IMG/VR virus record: IMGVR_UViG_2551306491_000003
Strand: one strand, 5' to 3'
DNA: 13,759 nt
Source: a virus
Taxonomy: Duplodnaviria > Heunggongvirae > Uroviricota > Caudoviricetes
The first letter of the stretch is position 1; each line of letters starts with the position of its first letter. The notes under the pieces were generated by a model. That model did no database searches and was not told the DNA's origin. It saw only the letters and a list, made by a program, of their open reading frames with translations. Shown here in pieces: positions 1-13,759 of this stretch. The translations under genes and the position numbers were made by a program.

Positions 1-261
1 GTTACTGCGGCGCAGTTCACGATTTTCACGTTCCAGCTCTTTCAGACGCTGACGTTCAGCGGTGGTGAGTCCACCATCACCACTCCCGGTATCCCGCTCA
101 TGCTGACGAACCCACACACGCAGAGTCTCTGGTGTACAGCCAATCTTTGGGGCAATGGAACAAATTGCCGCCCATTGTGAGTCATATTCGCCCTGACTTT
201 CCAGAACCATACGAACTGCTCGTTGACGGACCTCGGGGGAAAAACGTGTATTTTTAGTCAT
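1..261 (-). CDS. IS3-family transposase OrfA (helix-turn-helix DNA-binding subunit), N-terminal 87 codons; 3' end outside window
   Basis: Minus-strand translation from ATG (complement of 259..261): [87 protein letters not shown]. No stop within the window, which is why it is absent from the ORF track. Confidence 0.85.
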
Positions 262-2241: not shown

Positions 2242-2261
2242 CAGGACGATACTCATCATTT

Positions 2262-2285
2262 GCCCCGGTTATCCGGGGCTTTTTT
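2262..2285 (+). terminator. Intrinsic (rho-independent) terminator-like hairpin between V and G
   Basis: gccccgg-ttat-ccggggc (7-bp GC stem, 4-nt loop) followed immediately by tttttt. Confidence 0.65.
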
Positions 2286-2301
2286 GCAGGTGGAGAACAT
2301 G

Positions 2302-2688: not shown

Positions 2689-3026
2689 CGCGGGAAATGC
2701 AGTTTGTCATGCGGCTTGCCCGGGAGTTCCGGCGGGCAGACTGGCGGCGGATGCTGTCGGAAATGTCGGCCACTGAGCTTGGTGAGTGGGGCGATTATTT
2801 CCGGATGCAGAGCTTCAGTGATGTGTGGATGGATGCGCAGTTTGCCTCGCTGAAGGCATTGATCGTGAGAATGGTGTCCGGTAGCAGTGATGCTGCGGTG
2901 GCTGATTTCAGCCTTTTACCGGAAGAGAACGGGATACCGGAGCGAACGGACGAAGAACTGATGCATCTTGGGGAAGGTATTTCCGGAGGTGTGCGTTATG
3001 GACCAGATAGCCAACCTGGTCATTGA
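2664..3026 (+). CDS. T: T-frame segment of the tail assembly chaperone, expected to be expressed only as a G-T fusion by programmed -1 ribosomal frameshift near 2676..2682
   Basis: The -1 frame relative to G opens after a TGA at 2661..2663 and overlaps the last 25 nt of G. There is no RBS for the first ATG at 2697. Position and size match lambda T. Confidence 0.7.
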   Translation, partial: GADAGKVLTREMQFVMRLAREFRRADWRRMLSEMSATELGEWGDYFRMQSFSDVWMDAQFASLKALIVRMVSGSSDAAVADFSLLPEENGIPERTDEELMHLGEGISGGVRYGPDSQPGH

Positions 3027-6000
3027 TTTGGGGATTGATGCGGCAGAGTTTAAAAATGAAATTCCCCGTATCAAAAACCTTCTGAATGGTGCAGCCAGCG
3101 ATGCAGAACGGTCTTCTGCCCGTATGCAGCGTTTTATGGAGCGTCAGACTCAGGCCGCCCGGCAGACAATGCAGGCGGCTTCTTCGGCTGCAACAGCCGC
3201 ATCCGTCCATGCGCAGACGGTGGAGAAGAGCGCACAGGCTCATGAACGCATGGCCCGCGAGGTGGAGCAAACCCGCCAGCGTATGGAGGCACTGAGCCAG
3301 AAAATGCGCGAGGAACAGGCGCAGGCCATGGCTCTGGCGGAGGCTCAGGATAAAGCGGCTGCTGCGTTTTATCGTCAGATTGACAGTGTGAAACAGGCCG
3401 GTGCGGGGCTGCAGGAATTACAGCGTATTCAGCAACAGATCCGACAGGCCAGAAACAGTGGCGGGATTGGTCAGCAGGATTATCTGGCGCTGATTTCTGA
3501 GGTTACGGCGAAAACCCGTGTTCTTACACAGGCTGAGGAAGAGGCTACCCGACAGAAAGTGGCGTTTATCCGTCAGCTTAAAGAGCAGGCAACCCGCCAG
3601 AATCTTTCTTCTTCTGAGTTGCTTCGTGCTAAGGCTGCCCAGCTGGGGGTAAGCAGTGCTGCAGAAGTGTATATCCGCAAAATGGAGCAGGCAGGAAAAG
3701 CCACGCATTCGCTGGGTCTGAAAAGTGCAGCAGCCCGTCAGGAGATAGGCGTTCTGATAGGTGAACTGGCCCGCGGCAATTTAGGTGCGCTGAGGGGATC
3801 CGGAATAACGCTGGCTAACCGTGCCGGGTGGATAGACACACTGATGTCACCGAAAGGCATGATGCCAGGAGCGGTTATTGGCGGTATTGCCGCGGCTGTC
3901 TATGGTCTGGGTAAAGCCTGGTATGACGGTCAGAAGGAGGGGGAAGAATTTAACCGCCAGCTGTCGCTGACGGGGCATTATGCCGGAGTCACTGCCGGGC
4001 AGCTGTGGACGCTCAGTCGTGCTATTTCCGGGAATGGTATCACGCAACATGCTGCAGCCGGTGCGCTGGCTCAGGTGGTGGGGAGTGGTGCATTTCGTGG
4101 AAACGATATCGGTATGGTGGCGAGAGCTGCCGCACAGATGGAGCGATCGGTTGGCCAGTCGGTCAGCGATACCATAAATCAGTTTAAGCGGCTGAAGGAT
4201 GATCCTGTAAATGCCGCGAAGGCTCTGGACAATGAGCTGCATTTTCTTACTGCCACTCAGCTTGAGCAGATACGCGTCCTTGGGGAGCAGGGGCGGTCCA
4301 GTGATGCTGCACGGATAGCCATGTCTGCACTGGCAGAGGAAACCGGTCGGCGTACTGCGGATATTGATAATAACCTCAATGCGCTTGGCAGTACGCTGAA
4401 GTATCTGTCTGATTTGTGGAGTCGTTTCTGGGATGCGGCCATGAATATTGGTCGTGAAGACTCGCTGGATGAACAGATTGCCGCTTTACAGGAGAAAGTG
4501 TCGCGGGCGAAAAGACTCCCCTGGACGGCATCATCTTCTCAGGTTGAATACGATCAGCAGCGTCTTAACGATCTTCAGGAGAAAAAACGCCAGAAGGATT
4601 TGCAGGATGCAAAAGAGCAGGCAGAGCGGAATTATCAGGAGCAACAGAAACGCCGTAATGCTGAAAATGCTGCACTGAACCGGATGAATGAAACGGAAGC
4701 AGCACGACATCAGCGTGAAATAGCGCGTATTAATGCCATGCAGTACGCCGATCAGGCTGTCAGGGATGCGGCGATACAACGTGAAAATGAACGTTACGAG
4801 AAAGCCCTGGCATCCGGTAAGAAAAAAACACGCGAAACCCGTAATGATGAGGCCACCCGGTTATTGCTGCAGTACAGTCAGCAACAGGCACAGGTGGAAG
4901 GACAGATTGCTGCTGCCAGACAGTCAGCAGGCATTGCCACGGAAAGGATGACAGAAGCGCGTAAACAGCTTCTGGCTCTGCAGCAGCGCATCAGCGACCT
5001 GGACGGGAAAAAACTGACGGCAGATGAAAAGAGTGTGCTGGCCCGTAAAGATGAACTGATTCAGGCACTGACGCTGCTGGATGTAAAACAGCAGGAGCTT
5101 CAGAAACAGACGGCACTCAACGAGCTGAAGAAAAAAACAATTCAGCTGACCAGTCAACTGGCTGAAGAAGAGCGCGCTCAGCGTCAGCAACATGACCTGG
5201 ATATCGCCACGGTGGGTATGGGTGATCAGCAGCGACAGCGATATCAGGTACAACTGAGTCTTCGCCAGAAATACCAGCAACAGCTGGAGCAGTTGAGGCG
5301 GGATAGTGAGCAGAAAGGGACATATAACACGGATGACTACAGAAAGGCCGAGCAGGCGCTGACGGAGAGCCTGAACCGACAACTGAATGAGAATCGCCGT
5401 TACTGGCAACAGCTTGAAGTTGTACAGGGTAACTGGAAAAACGGAGTCCTGCGTGCATTTCAGGATTTTACCGTGGATGCAGATAATACGGCAGAAACAG
5501 CAGAACAGGTGTTCTCGTCAGCCTTCAGCAACATGGGAAATGGCCTGGCAACTTTTGTCACTACCGGCAAACTCAATTTCAAATCCTTCACCTCTTCTGT
5601 GCTGTCAGATATGGCGAAAATCCTGGCGCAGGCAACCATGATGAAATCGATAAAAGGGATTGGCAGTGTACTGGGATTTGATCTCAGCAGCCTTTCCCTG
5701 AATGCCAATGGGGGGATTTATCAGTCTGCTGATTTGAGTCGTTACAGTGGCACGGTGGTTAACCGTCCGACGTTTTTTGCTTTTGCAAAAGGCGCGGGTG
5801 TGATGGGGGAAGCGGGACCTGAAGCCATTCTGCCATTGCGTCGTGGTGCTGACGGTAAGCTGGGGGTTGTGGCGGATATTGGGGGTTCAGGTATGGCGAT
5901 GTTTTCCCCGCAGTACAACATCGAGATCAATAACGATGGCACGAACGGGCAGATAGGTCCGGCTGCCCTGAAGGCGGTTTATGACCTCGGGAAAAAAGCG

Positions 6001-6063
6001 GCAGCGGACTTTATGCAACAGCAGGCCCGTGATGGTGGTCGGTTAAGTGGAGCATATCGGTAA
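2998..6063 (+). CDS. H: Tail tape measure protein H (lambda gpH-like), 1021 aa
   Basis: RBS ggagg 2985..2989 then ATG 2998. N-terminus MDQIANLVIDLGIDAAEF resembles lambda H MAEPVGDLVVDLSLDAARF; C-terminus contains INNDGTNGQIGPAALKAVYD and DGG as in lambda H. Long Q/E/R/K/A-rich central coiled-coil region. The track ORF start 2968 is TTG. Confidence 0.9.
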   Translation: MDQIANLVIDLGIDAAEFKNEIPRIKNLLNGAASDAERSSARMQRFMERQTQAARQTMQAASSAATAASVHAQTVEKSAQAHERMAREVEQTRQRMEALSQKMREEQAQAMALAEAQDKAAAAFYRQIDSVKQAGAGLQELQRIQQQIRQARNSGGIGQQDYLALISEVTAKTRVLTQAEEEATRQKVAFIRQLKEQATRQNLSSSELLRAKAAQLGVSSAAEVYIRKMEQAGKATHSLGLKSAAARQEIGVLIGELARGNLGALRGSGITLANRAGWIDTLMSPKGMMPGAVIGGIAAAVYGLGKAWYDGQKEGEEFNRQLSLTGHYAGVTAGQLWTLSRAISGNGITQHAAAGALAQVVGSGAFRGNDIGMVARAAAQMERSVGQSVSDTINQFKRLKDDPVNAAKALDNELHFLTATQLEQIRVLGEQGRSSDAARIAMSALAEETGRRTADIDNNLNALGSTLKYLSDLWSRFWDAAMNIGREDSLDEQIAALQEKVSRAKRLPWTASSSQVEYDQQRLNDLQEKKRQKDLQDAKEQAERNYQEQQKRRNAENAALNRMNETEAARHQREIARINAMQYADQAVRDAAIQRENERYEKALASGKKKTRETRNDEATRLLLQYSQQQAQVEGQIAAARQSAGIATERMTEARKQLLALQQRISDLDGKKLTADEKSVLARKDELIQALTLLDVKQQELQKQTALNELKKKTIQLTSQLAEEERAQRQQHDLDIATVGMGDQQRQRYQVQLSLRQKYQQQLEQLRRDSEQKGTYNTDDYRKAEQALTESLNRQLNENRRYWQQLEVVQGNWKNGVLRAFQDFTVDADNTAETAEQVFSSAFSNMGNGLATFVTTGKLNFKSFTSSVLSDMAKILAQATMMKSIKGIGSVLGFDLSSLSLNANGGIYQSADLSRYSGTVVNRPTFFAFAKGAGVMGEAGPEAILPLRRGADGKLGVVADIGGSGMAMFSPQYNIEINNDGTNGQIGPAALKAVYDLGKKAAADFMQQQARDGGRLSGAYR

Positions 6064-6392
6064 TGGAGACGTTTCACTGGAAAGTGCGCCCGGATATGAA
6101 TGTGGTATCAGAGCCGAAAGTGGTGACAGTGAAGCTGGGCGATGGTTATGAACAGCGTCGTGCGGCGGGACTGAATAACCAGTTGTCGACTTACAGCGTG
6201 ACGATACGTGTTCGTAAATGTGAACACCCATCTTTAAAAGCCTTTCTGGAACGGCACGGTGGCGTCCGTGCATTTCAGTGGACGCCACCTTATGACTGGA
6301 AACCGATCAGGGTGGTTTGTCGTAAATGGTCGGCAAGCGTGGGGGCGCTGTGGGTAACCATAACGGCAGATTTTGAACAGGTCGTGGCATAG
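6063..6392 (+). CDS. M: Tail tip assembly protein M (lambda gpM-like), 109 aa
   Basis: TAATG overlap with the H stop. Same length as lambda M, with motifs FHWKV, GDGYEQR, TYSVT, WTPPYDW, AEFEQVV-like. Confidence 0.85.
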   Translation: METFHWKVRPDMNVVSEPKVVTVKLGDGYEQRRAAGLNNQLSTYSVTIRVRKCEHPSLKAFLERHGGVRAFQWTPPYDWKPIRVVCRKWSASVGALWVTITADFEQVVA

Positions 6393-6401
6393 GAGGCTCT
6401 G

Positions 6402-7100
6402 ATGCAGGATATTCCACAGGAAACACATCATGAGACGACACGCCTCACTCAGTCAGCCCAGGCGGTGCTCTGGGAAATCGATCTGACAGAGGTCGGTGGT
6501 GAACGTTATTTTTTCTGTAATGAGCAGAACGAAAAAGGTGAGCCGGTTACCTGGCAGGGGCGGCAGTATCAGGCATACCCCATTCAGGGGACGGGATTTG
6601 AACTGAACGGCAAGGGCAGTTCTGCCCGTCCGACACTGACGGTTTCTAACCTGCACGGCATGGTCACGGGGATGGCGGAAGACCTGCAGAGTCTGGTCGG
6701 CGGAACGGTGGTCCGGCGTAAGGTTTACGCCCGTTTTCTGGATGCGGTGAACTTCGTCAACGGAAACAGCGACGCCGATCCGGAGCAGGAGGTGATCAGC
6801 CGCTGGCGCATTGAGCAGTGCAGCGAACTGAGCGCGGTGAGTGCCTCTTTTGTACTGTCCACGCCGACGGAAACGGACGGCGCTGTTTTTCCGGGACGTA
6901 TCATGCTGGCCAACACCTGCACCTGGACCTATCGCGGCGATGAGTGCGGTTATCACGGTCCGGCGGTCGCGGATGAATATGACCAGCCAACGTCCGATAT
7001 CACGAAGGATAAATGCAGCAAATGCCTGAGCGGTTGTAAGTTCCGCAATAACGTCGGCAACTTTGGCGGCTTCCTTTCCATTAACAAACTTTCGCAGTAA
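6402..7100 (+). CDS. L: Tail tip protein L (lambda gpL-like), 232 aa, with C-terminal four-cysteine cluster
   Basis: RBS aggagg 6391..6396. Same length as lambda L. Cysteine codons at 6918, 7015, 7024, 7035 (C-x..-C-x2-C-x3-C). Confidence 0.85.
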   Translation: MQDIPQETHHETTRLTQSAQAVLWEIDLTEVGGERYFFCNEQNEKGEPVTWQGRQYQAYPIQGTGFELNGKGSSARPTLTVSNLHGMVTGMAEDLQSLVGGTVVRRKVYARFLDAVNFVNGNSDADPEQEVISRWRIEQCSELSAVSASFVLSTPTETDGAVFPGRIMLANTCTWTYRGDECGYHGPAVADEYDQPTSDITKDKCSKCLSGCKFRNNVGNFGGFLSINKLSQ

Positions 7101-8454: not shown

Positions 8455-11400
8455 ATGGGTAAAGGAAGCAGTAAGGGGCATACCCCGCGCGAAGCGAAGG
8501 ACAACCTGAAGTCCACGCAGCTGCTGAGTGTGATCGATGCCATCAGCGAAGGACCGATTGAAGGTCCGGTGGATGGATTAAAAAGCGTGCTGCTGAACAG
8601 TACGCCGGTGCTGGACAGTGAAGGTAATACCAACATCTCCGGTGTCACGGTGGTGTTCCGGGCCGGTGAGCAGGAGCAGACACCGCCGGAGGGATTTGAA
8701 TCCTCCGGTTCTGAGACGGTGCTGGGTACGGAAGTGAAATACGACACGCCGATCACCCGCACCATCACGTCGGCAAACATCGATCGTCTGCGCTTTACTT
8801 TCGGTGTGCAGGCACTGCGGGAAACCACCTCAAAGGGGGACCGGAATCCGTCGGAAGTCCGCCTGCTGGTTCAGATACAGCGTAATGGTGGCTGGGTGAC
8901 GGAAAAAGACATCACCATTAAGGGCAAAACCACGTCGCAGTATCTGGCCTCGGTGGTGGTGGATAACCTGCCGCCGCGCCCGTTTAATATCCGGATGCGC
9001 AGGATGACGCCGGACAGCACCACAGACCAGCTGCAGAACAAAACGCTCTGGTCGTCATACACCGAAATCATCGATGTGAAACAGTGCTACCCGAACACGG
9101 CACTGGTTGGCGTGCAGGTGGACTCGGAGCAGTTTGGCAGTCAGCAGGTGAGCCGTAATTATCATCTTCGCGGGCGCATTCTGCAGGTGCCGTCAAACTA
9201 TGATCCGGAAAAACGCACTTACAGCGGCATCTGGGACGGAACGTTAAAACCGGCATACAGCAACAACATGGCCTGGTGTCTGTGGGATATGCTGACCCAC
9301 CCGCGCTACGGCATGGGGAAACGTCTTGGTGCGGCGGATGTGGATAAATGGGCGCTGTATGTCATCGGCCAGTACTGCGACCAGTCAGTACCGGACGGCT
9401 TTGGCGGCACGGAGCCGCGCATCACCTGTAATGCGTACCTGACCACGCAGCGCAAGGCGTGGGATGTGCTCAGTGATTTCTGCTCGGCGATGCGCTGTAT
9501 GCCGGTATGGAACGGGCAGACGCTGACGTTCGTGCAGGACCGGCCGTCGGATAAGGTGTGGACCTATAACCGCAGTAATGTGGTGATGCCGGATGATGGC
9601 GCGCCGTTCCGCTACAGCTTTAGCGCCCTGAAAGACCGCCATAATGCCGTTGAGGTGAACTGGACTGACCCGGACAACGGCTGGGAGACGGCGACAGAGC
9701 TTGTGGAGGACACGCAGGCCATTGCCCGTTACGGTCGTAACGTCACGAAGATGGATGCCTTTGGCTGTACCAGTCGGGGGCAGGCACACCGTGCCGGGCT
9801 GTGGCTGATTAAAACGGAACTGCTGGAAACGCAGACCGTGGACTTCAGCGTGGGCGCAGAAGGGCTTCGCCATGTACCGGGCGATGTCATTGAAATCTGT
9901 GATGATGACTATGCGGGGATCAGCATCGGTGGGCGTGTGCTGGCGGTGAACAGCCAGACCCGGACGCTGACGCTCGACCGTGAAATCACGCTGCCATCCT
10001 CCGGCACCACGCTGATAAGCCTGGTTGACGGAAGTGGCAATCCGGTCAGCGTGGAGGTTCAGTCCGTCACCGACGGCGTGAAGGTAAAAGTGAGCCGGGT
10101 TCCTGACGGTGTTGCTGAATACAGCGTGTGGGGGCTGAAGCTGCCGACGCTGCGCCAGCGCCTGTTCCGCTGCGTGAGTATCCGTGAGAACGACGACGGC
10201 ACGTATGCCATCACTGCCGTGCAGCATGTGCCGGAGAAAGAGGGCATCGTGGATAACGGGGCGCACTTTGACGGTGACCAGAGCAGCACGGTGAATGGTG
10301 TCACGCCGCCAGCGGTGCAGCACCTGACCGCCGAAGTCTCCGCAGACAGCGGGGAATATCAGGTGCTGGCGCGATGGGACACGCCGAAGGTGGTGAAGGG
10401 TGTGAGCTTCCTGCTTCGCCTGACCGTGGCAGCGGATGACGGCAGTGAGCGGCTGGTCAGCACGGCCCGGACGACGGAAACCACATACCGCTTCACGCAG
10501 CTGGCGCTGGGGAACTACAGGCTGACAGTCCGGGCGGTAAATGCGTGGGGACAGCAGGGCGATCCGGCGTCGGTATCGTTCCGGATTGCCGCACCGGCAG
10601 CGCCGTCACAGATTGAGCTGACACCGGGCTATTTTCAGATAACCGCCACGCCGCATCTTGCGGTTTATGATCCGACGGTACAGTTTGAGTTCTGGTTCTC
10701 GGAAACGCGGATTGCGGATATCAGGCAGGTTGAAACCAGCGCGCGTTATCTTGGTACGGCGCTGTACTGGATAGCCGCCAGTATCAATATCAAACCGGGC
10801 CATGATTATTACTTTTATATCCGCAGTGTGAACACCGTTGGCAAATCGGCATTCGTGGAGGCCGTCGGTCGGGCGAGCGATGATGCGGAAGGTTATCTGG
10901 ATTTTTTCAAAGGCAAGATAACCGAATCTCATCTCGGCAAGGAGCTGCTGGAAAAAGTCGATCTGACGGAGGATAACGCCAGCAGACTGGATGAGTTTTC
11001 GAAAGAGTGGAAGGACGCTAACGATAAATGGAATGCCATGTGGGGCGTCAAAATTGAGCAGACCAAAGACGGCAAACATTATGTCGCGGGTATTGGCCTC
11101 AGCATGGAGGACACGGAGGAAGGCAAGCTGAGCCAGTTTCTGGTTGCCGCCAATCGTATCGCGTTTATTGACCCGGCAAACGGGAATGAAACGCCGATGT
11201 TTGTGGCGCAGGGCAACCAGATATTCATGAACGACGTGTTCCTGAAGCGCCTGACGGCCCCCACCATTACCAGCGGTGGAAATCCACCGGTATTTTCCCT
11301 GACATCAGACGGAAAGCTGACCGCTAAAAATGCGGATATCAGTGGCAGTGTGAATGCGAACTCCGGGACGCTCAACAACGTCACGGTAAATGAAAACTGT

Positions 11401-11868
11401 ACGATTAAGGGCATGCTGGAGGCGACTCAGGTCAGAGGTGACTTCGTTAAAGCTGTATCCAAATCATTTCCGAAACAGGCTGGTACGTGGGGTAACACGG
11501 AAACACCAAACGGGACGGTTACAGTCACCATCAGCGATGATCATAACTTTGACCGTCAAATCATTATTCCGCCCATTATCTTTAACGGAATAGCGTATAG
11601 CGATCCGGGAAGTGGTAATAACCCGGGAGGTACAAGATACACGGGTTATGGTTTTGAAGTTCGCAAAAACGGTGTATTAATCGCATCCAGAGAAACTAAA
11701 GGGGCCATTCCCGGTAGCTACAGTGCGGTTATTGATATGCCGAGTGGCAGGGGAAGCGTCACTCTGGAGTTTAAGGTTTTCCATAAAGGCAATCAGCGGG
11801 CAGGTAATATCACCGACTGTACGGTGATTGTGACCAAAAAAGCGGCTTCCGGCATCAGTATCCGTTGA
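8455..11868 (+). CDS. J: Central tail fibre / host specificity protein J (lambda gpJ-like), 1137 aa
   Basis: RBS ggag 8443..8446 then ATG 8455. Size close to lambda J (1132 aa) and next in the conserved order. The C-terminal about 250 aa would be the receptor-binding region. Confidence 0.9.
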
Positions 11869-11889: not shown

Positions 11890-11914
11890 GGGCGCCAGAA
11901 ATGGCGCCTTTTTT
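11890..11914 (+). terminator. Intrinsic terminator downstream of J
   Basis: ggcgcc-agaaat-ggcgcc hairpin (6-bp GC stem) followed by tttttt (11909..11914). Confidence 0.65.
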
Positions 11915-11938
11915 ATTGCAGAAAATCGGGAGGTAATT

Positions 11939-12538
11939 ATGCGTAAAGTTTGTGCAGCAATTTTGTCCGCAGCCATTTGTCTGGCCGTATCCGGTGTGCC
12001 TGCATGGGCGTCTGAGCATCAGTCCACGCTGAGCGCAGGATATCTTCATGCCAGTACGGACGCTCCCGGCAGCGATGATCTGAACGGGATTAACGTGAAA
12101 TACCGTTATGAGTTTACGGACACACTGGGGCTGATTACGTCCTTCAGTTATGCCAACGCCGAAGATGAGCAAAAAACGCATTACAGCGATACCCGCTGGC
12201 ATGAGGATTACGTGCGTAACCGCTGGTTCAGCGTGATGGCAGGGCCGTCTGTGCGTGTGAATGAATGGTTCAGTGCGTATGCGATGGCGGGTGTGGCTTA
12301 CAGCCGTGTGTCGACTTTTTCCGGGGATTATTTCCGCGTAACTGACAACAAGAGGAAAACGCACGACGTGCTGACCGGAAGTGATGACGCTCGCTACAGC
12401 AACACATCTCTGGCGTGGGGGGCTGGCGTGCAGTTTAACCCGACCGAATCAGTGGCCGTTGATGTCGCTTATGAAGGCTCCGGCAGCGGTGACTGGCGCA
12501 CTGACGGTTTCATCGTGGGTGTCGGTTATAAATTTTGA
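11939..12538 (+). CDS. lom: Outer membrane beta-barrel protein Lom (Ail/Lom/PagC family), 199 aa with signal peptide
   Basis: RBS gggagg 11928..11933. N-terminal signal peptide MRKVCAAILSAAICLAVSGVPAWA. Aromatic-rich beta-strand pattern ending in terminal Phe (GVGYKF), typical of outer-membrane barrels. Sits between J and stf as lom does in lambda. Confidence 0.85.
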   Translation: MRKVCAAILSAAICLAVSGVPAWASEHQSTLSAGYLHASTDAPGSDDLNGINVKYRYEFTDTLGLITSFSYANAEDEQKTHYSDTRWHEDYVRNRWFSVMAGPSVRVNEWFSAYAMAGVAYSRVSTFSGDYFRVTDNKRKTHDVLTGSDDARYSNTSLAWGAGVQFNPTESVAVDVAYEGSGSGDWRTDGFIVGVGYKF

Positions 12539-12560
12539 TTAGTAACACAGCGTTATGACA

Positions 12561-12586
12561 GCCCGCCGGTTCAGGCGGGCTTTTTT
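12561..12586 (+). terminator. Intrinsic terminator downstream of lom
   Basis: gcccgcc-ggttca-ggcgggc (7-bp GC stem) followed by tttttt. Confidence 0.7.
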
Positions 12587-12597
12587 GTGGAGTGGGT

Positions 12598-13759
<1,162 letters not shown>

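Follow-up and report, generated by a model that had tools for sequence, protein, structure and literature searches.

In prophage Sp3 of Escherichia coli O157:H7, the major tail protein gene (V) is separated from the tail assembly chaperone gene (G) by a spacer that contains a G-C-rich hairpin, followed directly by a T6 tract. We propose that this element is probably a working intrinsic terminator in a Q-antiterminated late operon of the cdtI/mEp460 type, that Q allows polymerase to read through it, and that it might enrich the message for V. The element is already known, as it is annotated as a terminator in the genomes of closely related phages. The original prediction, which was made from the letters of the DNA, described the signal and suggested that it ends transcripts that are not antiterminated and could help to set a high ratio of V to G/GT. 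The structural call and the view of the gene context were right, and the interpretation as a whole is partly supported.

The sequence comes from prophage Sp3

We analyzed a stretch of 13,759 nucleotides (IMG/VR record IMGVR_UViG_2551306491_000003), which we will call the window. It is 100% identical to positions 3835334-3849092, minus strand, of E. coli O157:H7 strain Z1486 (NZ_CP062749.1). The prophage adjoins ybhB/bioA and carries nleB2, nleC, nleH1-1, and nleD. The counterpart in strain Sakai is annotated as "prophage Sp3, lambda-like phage" (CP-933K type). The Sakai locus tags are ECs_0834 for V (annotated as "phage major tail protein") and ECs_0835 for G, and the hairpin of Sakai is at 912,522-912,539 of NC_002695.2. 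In Z1486, an IS3-family element splits a FII-like gene (window positions 1-261) between the head genes and the tail genes, and the side tail fibre gene is truncated by IS1203 from window position 13604.

Sp3 is without repressor and replication genes, and its integrase and portal are disrupted (PMC2669165). It is defective and non-inducible: it shows no excision or circularisation, no replication, and no packaging (PMC2669165). Because Sp3 is defective, the V-G element in this genome is probably a relic of an ancestral phage.

The V-G spacer contains a canonical terminator signal

The window has the following genes, whose names are those of the lambda tail genes:

511-1089, + strand: Z (PF06763)
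1074-1487, + strand: U (PF06141)
1498-2241, + strand: V, the major tail protein gene, 247 amino acids (PF16461, E = 1.2e-66; PF02368 (Big_2), E = 1.3e-11)
2302-2688, + strand: G, the tail assembly chaperone gene (PF06894, E = 1.8e-39)
2697-3026, + strand: the T frame (PF06223)
2968-6063, + strand: H, the tape measure gene (Pfam match)
6063-6392, + strand: M (Pfam match)
6402-7100, + strand: L (Pfam match)
K, I, J (8455-11868), + strand: from genome annotations instead of the Pfam scan
11939-12538, + strand: lom (PF06316)

These matches bear out the identities that had been proposed for V and G. V consists of a tail-tube domain and a C-terminal Ig-like Big_2 domain, and it ends with the stop codon TAA at 2239-2241. 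Two ATG codons, at 2299 and 2302, are found ahead of G. The G homologues all begin with MFLK (we aligned the G proteins of Gifsy-1, Gifsy-2, Fels-1, and lambda) and PGAP uses the second ATG, so G probably starts at 2302 instead of 2299. A frame check found that the -1 frame that runs from G into T is open from 2664.

Between V and G we identified these features:

2242-2301, + strand: the V-G spacer, 60 nt when measured to a G start at 2302 (from the sequence and the PGAP and Sakai annotations)
2262-2279, + strand: the terminator hairpin GCCCCGG-TTAT-CCGGGGC, with a 7-bp all-G-C stem and a 4-nt loop
2262-2268, + strand: the 5' arm, GCCCCGG
2269-2272, + strand: the loop, TTAT
2273-2279, + strand: the 3' arm, CCGGGGC
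2280-2285, + strand: the T6 tract (the terminator's U-tract), which abuts the stem directly
2289-2295, + strand: the Shine-Dalgarno of G, GGTGGAG, which starts 3 nt past the T-tract and ends 6 nt before the ATG at 2302

With G starting at 2302, the interval that had been singled out (2242-2301) is exactly the intergenic spacer, and the 7-bp all-GC stem, tetraloop, and T6 are as they had been described. This confirms the hairpin and T6 signal as an observation. The hairpin begins 20 nt past the stop codon of V. This distance puts it outside the footprint of a terminating ribosome, free to fold. On the other side, GCA separates T6 from the Shine-Dalgarno GGTGGAG. The element is directional: its reverse complement has no T-tract 3' of the stem.

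We took an intrinsic terminator to have a G-C-rich stem (~5-14 bp) that closes a 3-8 nt loop, a U-tract right after the stem (5 or more U among 8 nt), an intergenic location in the same orientation as the upstream gene and clear of the terminating ribosome, and an excess over chance. The V-G site has all of these. It ranked second among the 18 sites from a terminator scan of the window. The 29-nt element has a predicted folding energy of -16.2 kcal/mol, as compared to -5.5 +/- 2.4 for shuffled sequences (z = -4.4), and none of 200 shuffles was as stable; the bare hairpin alone is at -15.0 kcal/mol. We also ran a strict scan in which the stem had to be perfect, with 7 or more pairs of which no fewer than 6 were G-C, the loop could be 3-8 nt long, and T had to fill 5 or 6 of the 6 positions past the stem. 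This gave three distinct sites in the window (at 2262, 11891, and 12560), which are all on the + strand and all intergenic. In 1000 dinucleotide shuffles, the mean number of strict sites was 0.009; any site at all appeared in 0.8% of the shuffles, and three sites appeared in none. The approximate d-score of the V-G element is about +41, using a formula attributed to d'Aubenton-Carafa 1990. Stem, U-tract, folding energy, and excess in the scan all agree with the claim that the signal in the V-G spacer is that of a canonical intrinsic terminator.

We considered other structures as well. An alternative fold or attenuator was rejected: folding of 2230-2310 gave no significant extra structure (z = -1.3). 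An anti-terminator was also rejected, as we found no upstream copy of CCGGGG in the sequence. An Rfam scan of the whole window at gathering thresholds gave no match, so the hairpin does not belong to the sequence-defined REP/BIME-type stabilisers. The V-G hairpin may still act as a stabiliser of mRNA.

The terminator signal is in a late operon with an upstream Q gene

The original prediction placed V and G within one late operon and noted that the role of the terminator depends on whether late transcripts are modified by Q. Both the operon and a Q gene are found in this prophage. The Q gene lies upstream on the same strand (5752-6441 of locus L206; PF06323, E = 1.1e-91), and the Sakai Sp3 annotation likewise describes ECs_0815 as phage antiterminator Q. 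According to the annotation, Q is followed by a same-strand array of lysis genes, terminase, portal, a ClpP-capsid fusion, head-tail genes, and tail genes.

Directly 3' of Q in the Sakai Sp3 (1999-2027 of locus L208), there is a promoter-like TTGCAA-17-TATACT, and ~35 nt past it there is a 9-bp hairpin with a T-run (L208 2061-2082). Both are consensus matches only. Together they would be the expected pR'/tR' layout.

The strongest terminator-like sites on the + strand of the late region lie after the lysis cassette, the ClpP-capsid fusion gene, V, J, and lom. Besides the V-G site, their locations include:

L208 12106-12126: after the ClpP-capsid fusion gene (Sp3)
11890-11915 of the window, + strand: after J
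12560-12587 of the window, + strand: after lom

All of these strongest sites are intergenic, as is every + strand site of the late region whose stem has 6 or more G-C pairs. The layout of a hairpin, then a T-run, then a Shine-Dalgarno recurs at the J-lom and lom-stf boundaries.

Our scan of the window found no promoter-like sites between 2286 and G; the nearest match on the + strand is at 6483. Therefore, G to J would be expressible only by reading through the terminator. In phage mEp460, the same tail module and terminator are downstream of a Q from another family (PF03589, instead of PF06323 as in Sp3), so the element is not tied to one type of Q.

Given this arrangement, we propose the following. 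Unmodified RNA polymerase would terminate at the U-tract, at about 2283-2286, and stray transcription in the lysogen would thus end after V. Polymerase that has been modified by Q would pass through the element. We expect this read-through because viable phages with the same element (mEp460, cdtI, Ayreon, and others) need G, GT, H, M, L, K, I, and J. More speculatively, some residual termination, together with protection of processed V transcripts from 3' exonucleases by the hairpin at their 3' ends, might lead to more message for V than for the downstream tail genes. This last idea follows the logic that has been proposed for other phages, in which a leaky terminator comes after a major structural gene.

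The element is conserved and annotated in related E. coli phages

In 17 phage records, among them cdtI, mEp460, Ayreon, phi458, Tritos, and HannyBb, the counterpart of positions 1900-2700 of the window is 95-97.5% identical. The record of mEp460 (JQ182728) labels 8751-8774, which is in the gap from the major tail protein gene to the G-like gene, as a "rho-independent terminator." In Ayreon (MF807953), 8742-8782 is annotated as a "terminator" at the orthologous position. In these two phages, the flanking DNA is 96.8-97.4% identical to the window and the gene boundary is the same. The stem, loop, and T6 of Ayreon are identical to those of Sp3, whereas mEp460 has one C-to-T change that leads to a G-U pair at the innermost position. 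mEp460 and Ayreon are viable, while the element of Sp3 is in a defective, IS-disrupted prophage. As in Sp3, the terminators of both phages are computational annotations. The record for mEp460 also annotates terminators after the protease/scaffold-capsid gene, J, and lom, which makes it the same set as in Sp3 and the window, minus the site after the lysis cassette.

To describe the variation within the cdtI/Sp3 group, we sampled ~80 IMG/VR loci along with genomes of E. coli, Shigella, and E. ruysiae. The stem is kept, and all of the E. coli and Shigella variants that we sampled have T5-T6. Most of the differences fall in the loop, in the two pairs next to it, and in the length of the T-run. The innermost pair is broken by a G-to-A change in 11 loci and by a C-to-G change in E. 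ruysiae, and the second-innermost pair is broken in 2 loci; other variants have the loop TCAT or a T5 run. The outermost pair is altered in just one locus (L040), which has lost the last C of the 3' arm. The approximate d-scores are +15 to +33 for most of the E. coli-group variants and -13 for the locus that is missing the last C.

A hairpin at the V-G boundary recurs in other lineages

The original prediction suggested comparing the V-G spacer to those of lambda and its relatives. We sampled 17 distinct types of V-G spacer. Every sampled spacer of at least 34 nt has a stable hairpin (-10 to -15 kcal/mol), with the exception of Gifsy-2. In contrast, the spacer of lambda itself is 15 nt and has no hairpin. 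Spacers of 2-23 nt without a stable hairpin are found in lambda, phi80, Klebsiella phage Kp4865-4, two Vibrio phages, and prophages of E. albertii, Phytobacter, Pluralibacter, and Superficieibacter. (For lambda, phi80, and the Klebsiella and Vibrio phages alone, the spacers are 2-15 nt.)

Across the sampled lineages, the T-tract ranges from strong to absent (T7 to T1). In Gifsy-1, the hairpin is invariant across 54 loci. In both Gifsy-1 and Fels-1, the two 7-nt arms are identical to the E. coli version, and a Citrobacter prophage has one arm that is 1 base off. All three have a 2-nt loop, with TTCT or TTTG past the stem; the approximate d-scores for Gifsy-1 and Fels-1 are about -3. Terminator scores are borderline or negative in these lineages, as in the N15/Atlantibacter clade described below. 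The flanks within the Gifsy/Fels-type spacers no longer show recognisable similarity, and identity is ~65-69% in the flanking genes. Gifsy-2 has a weak, G-U-rich stem (-4 kcal/mol), then one A, and then T7. Since both arms are invariant, the cdtI/Gifsy/Fels hairpin gives no information about covariation.

The clade of N15/Atlantibacter type has a different stem (core GGGGC/GCCCC) that starts 4-5 nt past the stop codon. Its T-run is T1-T4, and the Shine-Dalgarno ACGGAG is immediately adjacent to the hairpin. Most of the loops are GCGA, GTGA, GAAA, or GCAA, which we take to fit the stable GNRA tetraloop pattern. In most of the Atlantibacter-type clade, the approximate d-score is -21 to -37. Across 11 distinct aligned sequences, pairing in the stem is 94.8%. 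A single pair covaries (G-C, C-G, A-U, and U-A all occur), and as the observed score is matched in 28 of 500 shuffles, the covariation in this clade is thin.

Other hairpins are found at the same boundary. Symbiopectobacterium has two tandem hairpins, the first of which has T7, and Providencia phage PSTCR8lys has an unrelated 7-bp stem with T7.

The feature that is shared and recurrent in these comparisons is the hairpin, and the predicted strength of termination is specific to each lineage. Because the Salmonella and N15-type relatives have weak T-tracts, termination as such may not be the conserved function, and what is conserved may be the hairpin instead. Also, since the lambda-type phages are without the element, it must be dispensable for the stoichiometry of tail assembly. 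The proposed role in setting the ratio of V to G is therefore weakened by the comparison across lineages.

The stem itself is generic. GCCCCGG-N4-CCGGGGC followed by at least T4 occurs in unrelated viral contigs with many loops and flanks, and 57 of the 87 matches that we sampled were outside of V-G contexts. This means that the identical arms in E. coli and Salmonella need not reflect common descent. The same observation led us to reject a specific mobile element or a protein-binding palindrome. Both are also disfavored by the difference in loop length, which is 4 nt in E. coli and 2 nt in Salmonella.

Similar terminators are predicted or measured in other phages

In N15, a stem-loop at 9596-9613, between gene 13 (major tail) and gene 14 (the G homologue), is annotated as a "putative rho-indep. 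transcription terminator." As in Sp3, this is a G-C-rich hairpin at the same boundary of a lambda-like tail module. Unlike in Sp3, the stem-loop is CGGGGC-GCGA-GCCCCG, whose stem is unrelated, it lies 4 nt past the stop codon, and only TT follows, so it would be a weak terminator at best.

Lambda shares the operon logic of Sp3, with the gene order Z-U-V-G-T-H-M-L-K-I-J-lom and a promoter-like site and terminator after Q. One difference is at the V-G spacer.

More distant siphoviruses also have terminator signals at this location. We know of no Q-type antitermination in SPP1 or the Cluster O mycobacteriophages. In SPP1, a rho-independent terminator is predicted at 11255-11304, between 17.1* (which ends at 11279) and the chaperone 17.5 (which starts at 11363) (PMC6316719). 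In Cluster O mycobacteriophages, a terminator is predicted after the major tail gene (25166-25195 in Corndog; PMC4351075). Like Sp3, these phages have a stem-loop and T-run between the tail tube gene and the block with the chaperone or tape measure. However, the sequences, the hosts, and the control of the polymerase are all unrelated, and the terminators are predictions only. A hairpin at the same boundary in several lineages and in these Gram-positive phages argues for selection.

T7 has a leaky terminator, T-phi, after gene 10. T-phi and the terminators of LUZ7 resemble the role that we propose for Sp3, in that partial termination and a 3' hairpin enrich the message for an abundant structural protein. 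Their efficiencies were measured, while the role in Sp3 is a proposal. More broadly, long-read transcriptomics of a Pseudomonas phage found that over 60% of its termination sites allow substantial read-through, and the same authors point to T7 as a phage in which inefficient terminators serve to balance expression (bioRxiv 10.1101/2022.03.18.484859). Our literature search for RNA evidence at the V-G terminator in lambdoid phages found none.

Alternative explanations

The recurrence of the hairpin, with a T-tract that ranges from T7 to T1, raises the question of whether the element works chiefly in the stabilisation or processing of mRNA and is not a working terminator, with the T-tract as incidental. 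The hairpin would form behind the polymerase and, after cleavage in the spacer, it would block 3'-to-5' exonucleases, so that V would outlive G-to-J. The REP between malE and malF is reportedly a precedent for such an intercistronic hairpin (Newbury et al. 1987). The presence of a hairpin of -10 kcal/mol or stronger in all of the sampled spacers of at least 34 nt, bar Gifsy-2, is consistent with stabilisation, and so are the GNRA-like loops, the 94.8% paired stem, and the one covarying pair of the N15/Atlantibacter clade. But the E. coli group strictly keeps its T5-T6, the terminator score of the element is a strong one, and a single covarying pair, whose score is equalled by 28 of 500 shuffles, is thin evidence. 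We consider this explanation to be unlikely for the Sp3 element. A more positional argument can be made that the spacer and hairpin act as a translational insulator or enhancer for G, by uncoupling initiation at G from ribosome traffic on V, with the U-rich tract ahead of the Shine-Dalgarno as a standby or S1-binding site that sets the rate of initiation. In lambda, the V stop codon and the Shine-Dalgarno of G are 5 nt apart, so coupling is possible there. In Sp3 the T-tract ends just 3 nt before GGTGGAG, in the N15/Atlantibacter type the hairpin abuts ACGGAG, and the same order of elements is seen at J-lom and lom-stf. However, this reasoning is purely positional: any terminator in a short spacer would give a hairpin and then a Shine-Dalgarno, and the fold of 2230-2310 has no significant extra structure at the ribosome-binding site (z = -1.3). 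We think that a role in translation is improbable.

The hairpin could instead be a neutral passenger: a G-C hairpin left by an old insertion, such as a moron-boundary scar or a module junction, that is tolerated as Q-modified polymerase ignores terminators. This would fit with a generic motif whose sampled matches in viral contigs are mostly (57/87) outside of V-G contexts, with the lack of the element in lambda-type phages, and with the mutations at the inner pairs being tolerated. It is hard to reconcile with the 7-nt arms, which are both the same in E. coli (cdtI/Sp3), Gifsy-1, and Fels-1 despite the diverged flanks, or with the different hairpins at the same boundary in several lineages and in Gram-positive phages. 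We think that a passenger is likewise improbable. As we see it, a terminator that is read through under the control of Q is probably the best description of the element.

A possible small RNA from the 3' end of V

Because a hairpin with a terminal oligo-U is the kind of 3' end that Hfq binds, we also considered whether the last 40-70 nt of the V mRNA might be released as an Hfq-bound small RNA of the 3'-UTR type, or else whether the element might be an insulator for the tail/effector region during lysogeny. We give these ideas very little credence. The late regions of O157 prophages do encode two Hfq-dependent small RNAs, StxS and HnrS, whose 3' ends are at intrinsic terminators (PMC7547250, PMC13502914). 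Also, the list of small RNAs from Hfq-CRAC in EHEC left out, by design, any sites within 100 nt of coding regions (PMC4104026), and since sites this close were discarded, the published screen is blind to a small RNA from the V-G spacer (PMC4104026). Our scan of the window found no promoter-like site near the 3' end of V.

The 3' end of the V mRNA is present in several copies per EHEC genome. Late genes are mostly silent in lysogens, which goes against a small RNA.

None of the small RNAs that we checked correspond to the V-G element. sRNA-17 is from an mEp460-like prophage of strain RS218, but from an intergenic region of over 1 kb, which is not V-G (PMC7719688). HnrS (EcOnc10-12) comes from the opposite strand of Sp10, in the interval that separates the lysis genes from the terminase gene. 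EcOnc13 and EcOnc32, which are the two Sp3 small RNAs of the EHEC list, are located close to pR'.

Implications

On its own, the V-G element is an ordinary one, a routine terminator signal of little significance. The comparative point is that the boundary between the tube and chaperone genes repeatedly carries a stable hairpin, both in lambda-like lineages and in unrelated Gram-positive siphoviruses. This bears on how siphoviruses set the ratio of message for the tail tube protein (which is present in roughly 200 copies) to message for the low-copy assembly factors. The ratio could be set by leaky termination, by stabilisation from a 3' hairpin, or by translation alone. A related question is how fully the different families of Q suppress the internal terminators of late operons.

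Insertion elements at the ends of the window

Both ends of the window lie within IS3-family elements (IS629/IS1203 type) on the minus strand. Their extents are given below in window coordinates and in L206 coordinates, which are those of the prophage copy in strain Z1486.

IS elements and the gene truncated at the right end
1-261 (L206 17048-18261), minus strand: left-end IS3-family element, which splits the FII-like head-tail joining gene
12598-13560: side tail fibre gene, a pseudogene cut by the right-end element
13604-13759 (L206 31604-32817), minus strand: right-end IS3-family element, which truncates the side tail fibre gene

In Sakai Sp3, the FII-like gene is intact instead of split, so this insertion is not common to all strains.

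Start codon and frameshift site of G

G has two in-frame ATG codons within 2299-2304. The second (2302) suits the spacing from the Shine-Dalgarno sequence and gives the MFLK N-terminus that is common to all homologues; the first (2299) is just 3 nt past the Shine-Dalgarno sequence.

Because the -1 frame that runs into T opens at 2664 and no earlier (interval 2664-2688), the G-to-GT frameshift must fall in GTG CTG ACG CCG GAA AAG TCC TGA. The sole A-rich candidate in this interval is CCG GAA AAG, which differs from the canonical frameshift heptamer of lambda (G GGA AAG). The PEK residues that it encodes are kept in the G proteins of Gifsy and Fels.

V-G spacers in other genomes

Two Symbiopectobacterium loci (L096 and L098) each carry two tandem hairpins in the V-G spacer, some 80 nt before G: first AGCAGCG...CGCTGCT with T7 after it, then GCCCCGCG-TA-CGCGGGGC with TTATTC after it. 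A relative from Serratia marcescens (L097) retains only the second hairpin, as a degraded copy.

Loci L105-L123 and L087, from genome contigs, have a lambda-type V-G region that is identical or nearly identical to that of lambda in those sampled. These contigs are short or low-coverage, and the assemblies are labeled as Neobacillus, Oceanobacillus, Pseudomonas, Kitasatospora, Shewanella, Leeuwenhoekiella, Bradyrhizobium, and others. They are almost certainly lambda DNA contamination.

The G protein on a "Bacillota MAG" contig is 99% identical to that of the E. coli prophage.

Other terminator-like hairpins in the prophage

Two strong plus-strand terminators flank lom (11939-12538), one on each side.

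Terminators flanking lom
11890-11915, plus strand: terminator before lom, GGGCGCCA-GAAA-TGGCGCCT, then a T-run
12560-12587, plus strand: terminator after lom, AGCCCGCC-GGTTCA-GGCGGGCT, then T6

The next gene's Shine-Dalgarno sequence and ATG lie about 10-25 nt past each terminator, which is the layout seen at the V-G spacer. A lom gene bracketed by terminators is the classic "moron" architecture, and terminators are annotated at both sites in the related phage mEp460.

Sp3 has two Hfq-bound sRNA candidates, EcOnc13 and EcOnc32 (PMC4104026). Both lie in the moron region (3267-3770 in L208, the Sakai Sp3 locus), which is downstream of Q and just past pR', the late promoter-like site. The same region contains two strong terminator-like hairpins (L208 3373-3391 and 3742-3770).

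Sakai Sp3 also has two hairpins upstream of the window, 3' of the gene for the ClpP-protease/major-capsid fusion.

Hairpins after the capsid gene (L208 12106-12155)
first hairpin: GGCCC-GTAA-GGGCT, then T7
second hairpin: CAGCCCC-TGAAC-GGGGCTG, without a T-run

Therefore, the capsid and tail tube genes, which are the two most abundant structural genes in this type of phage, each precede a terminator-like hairpin.
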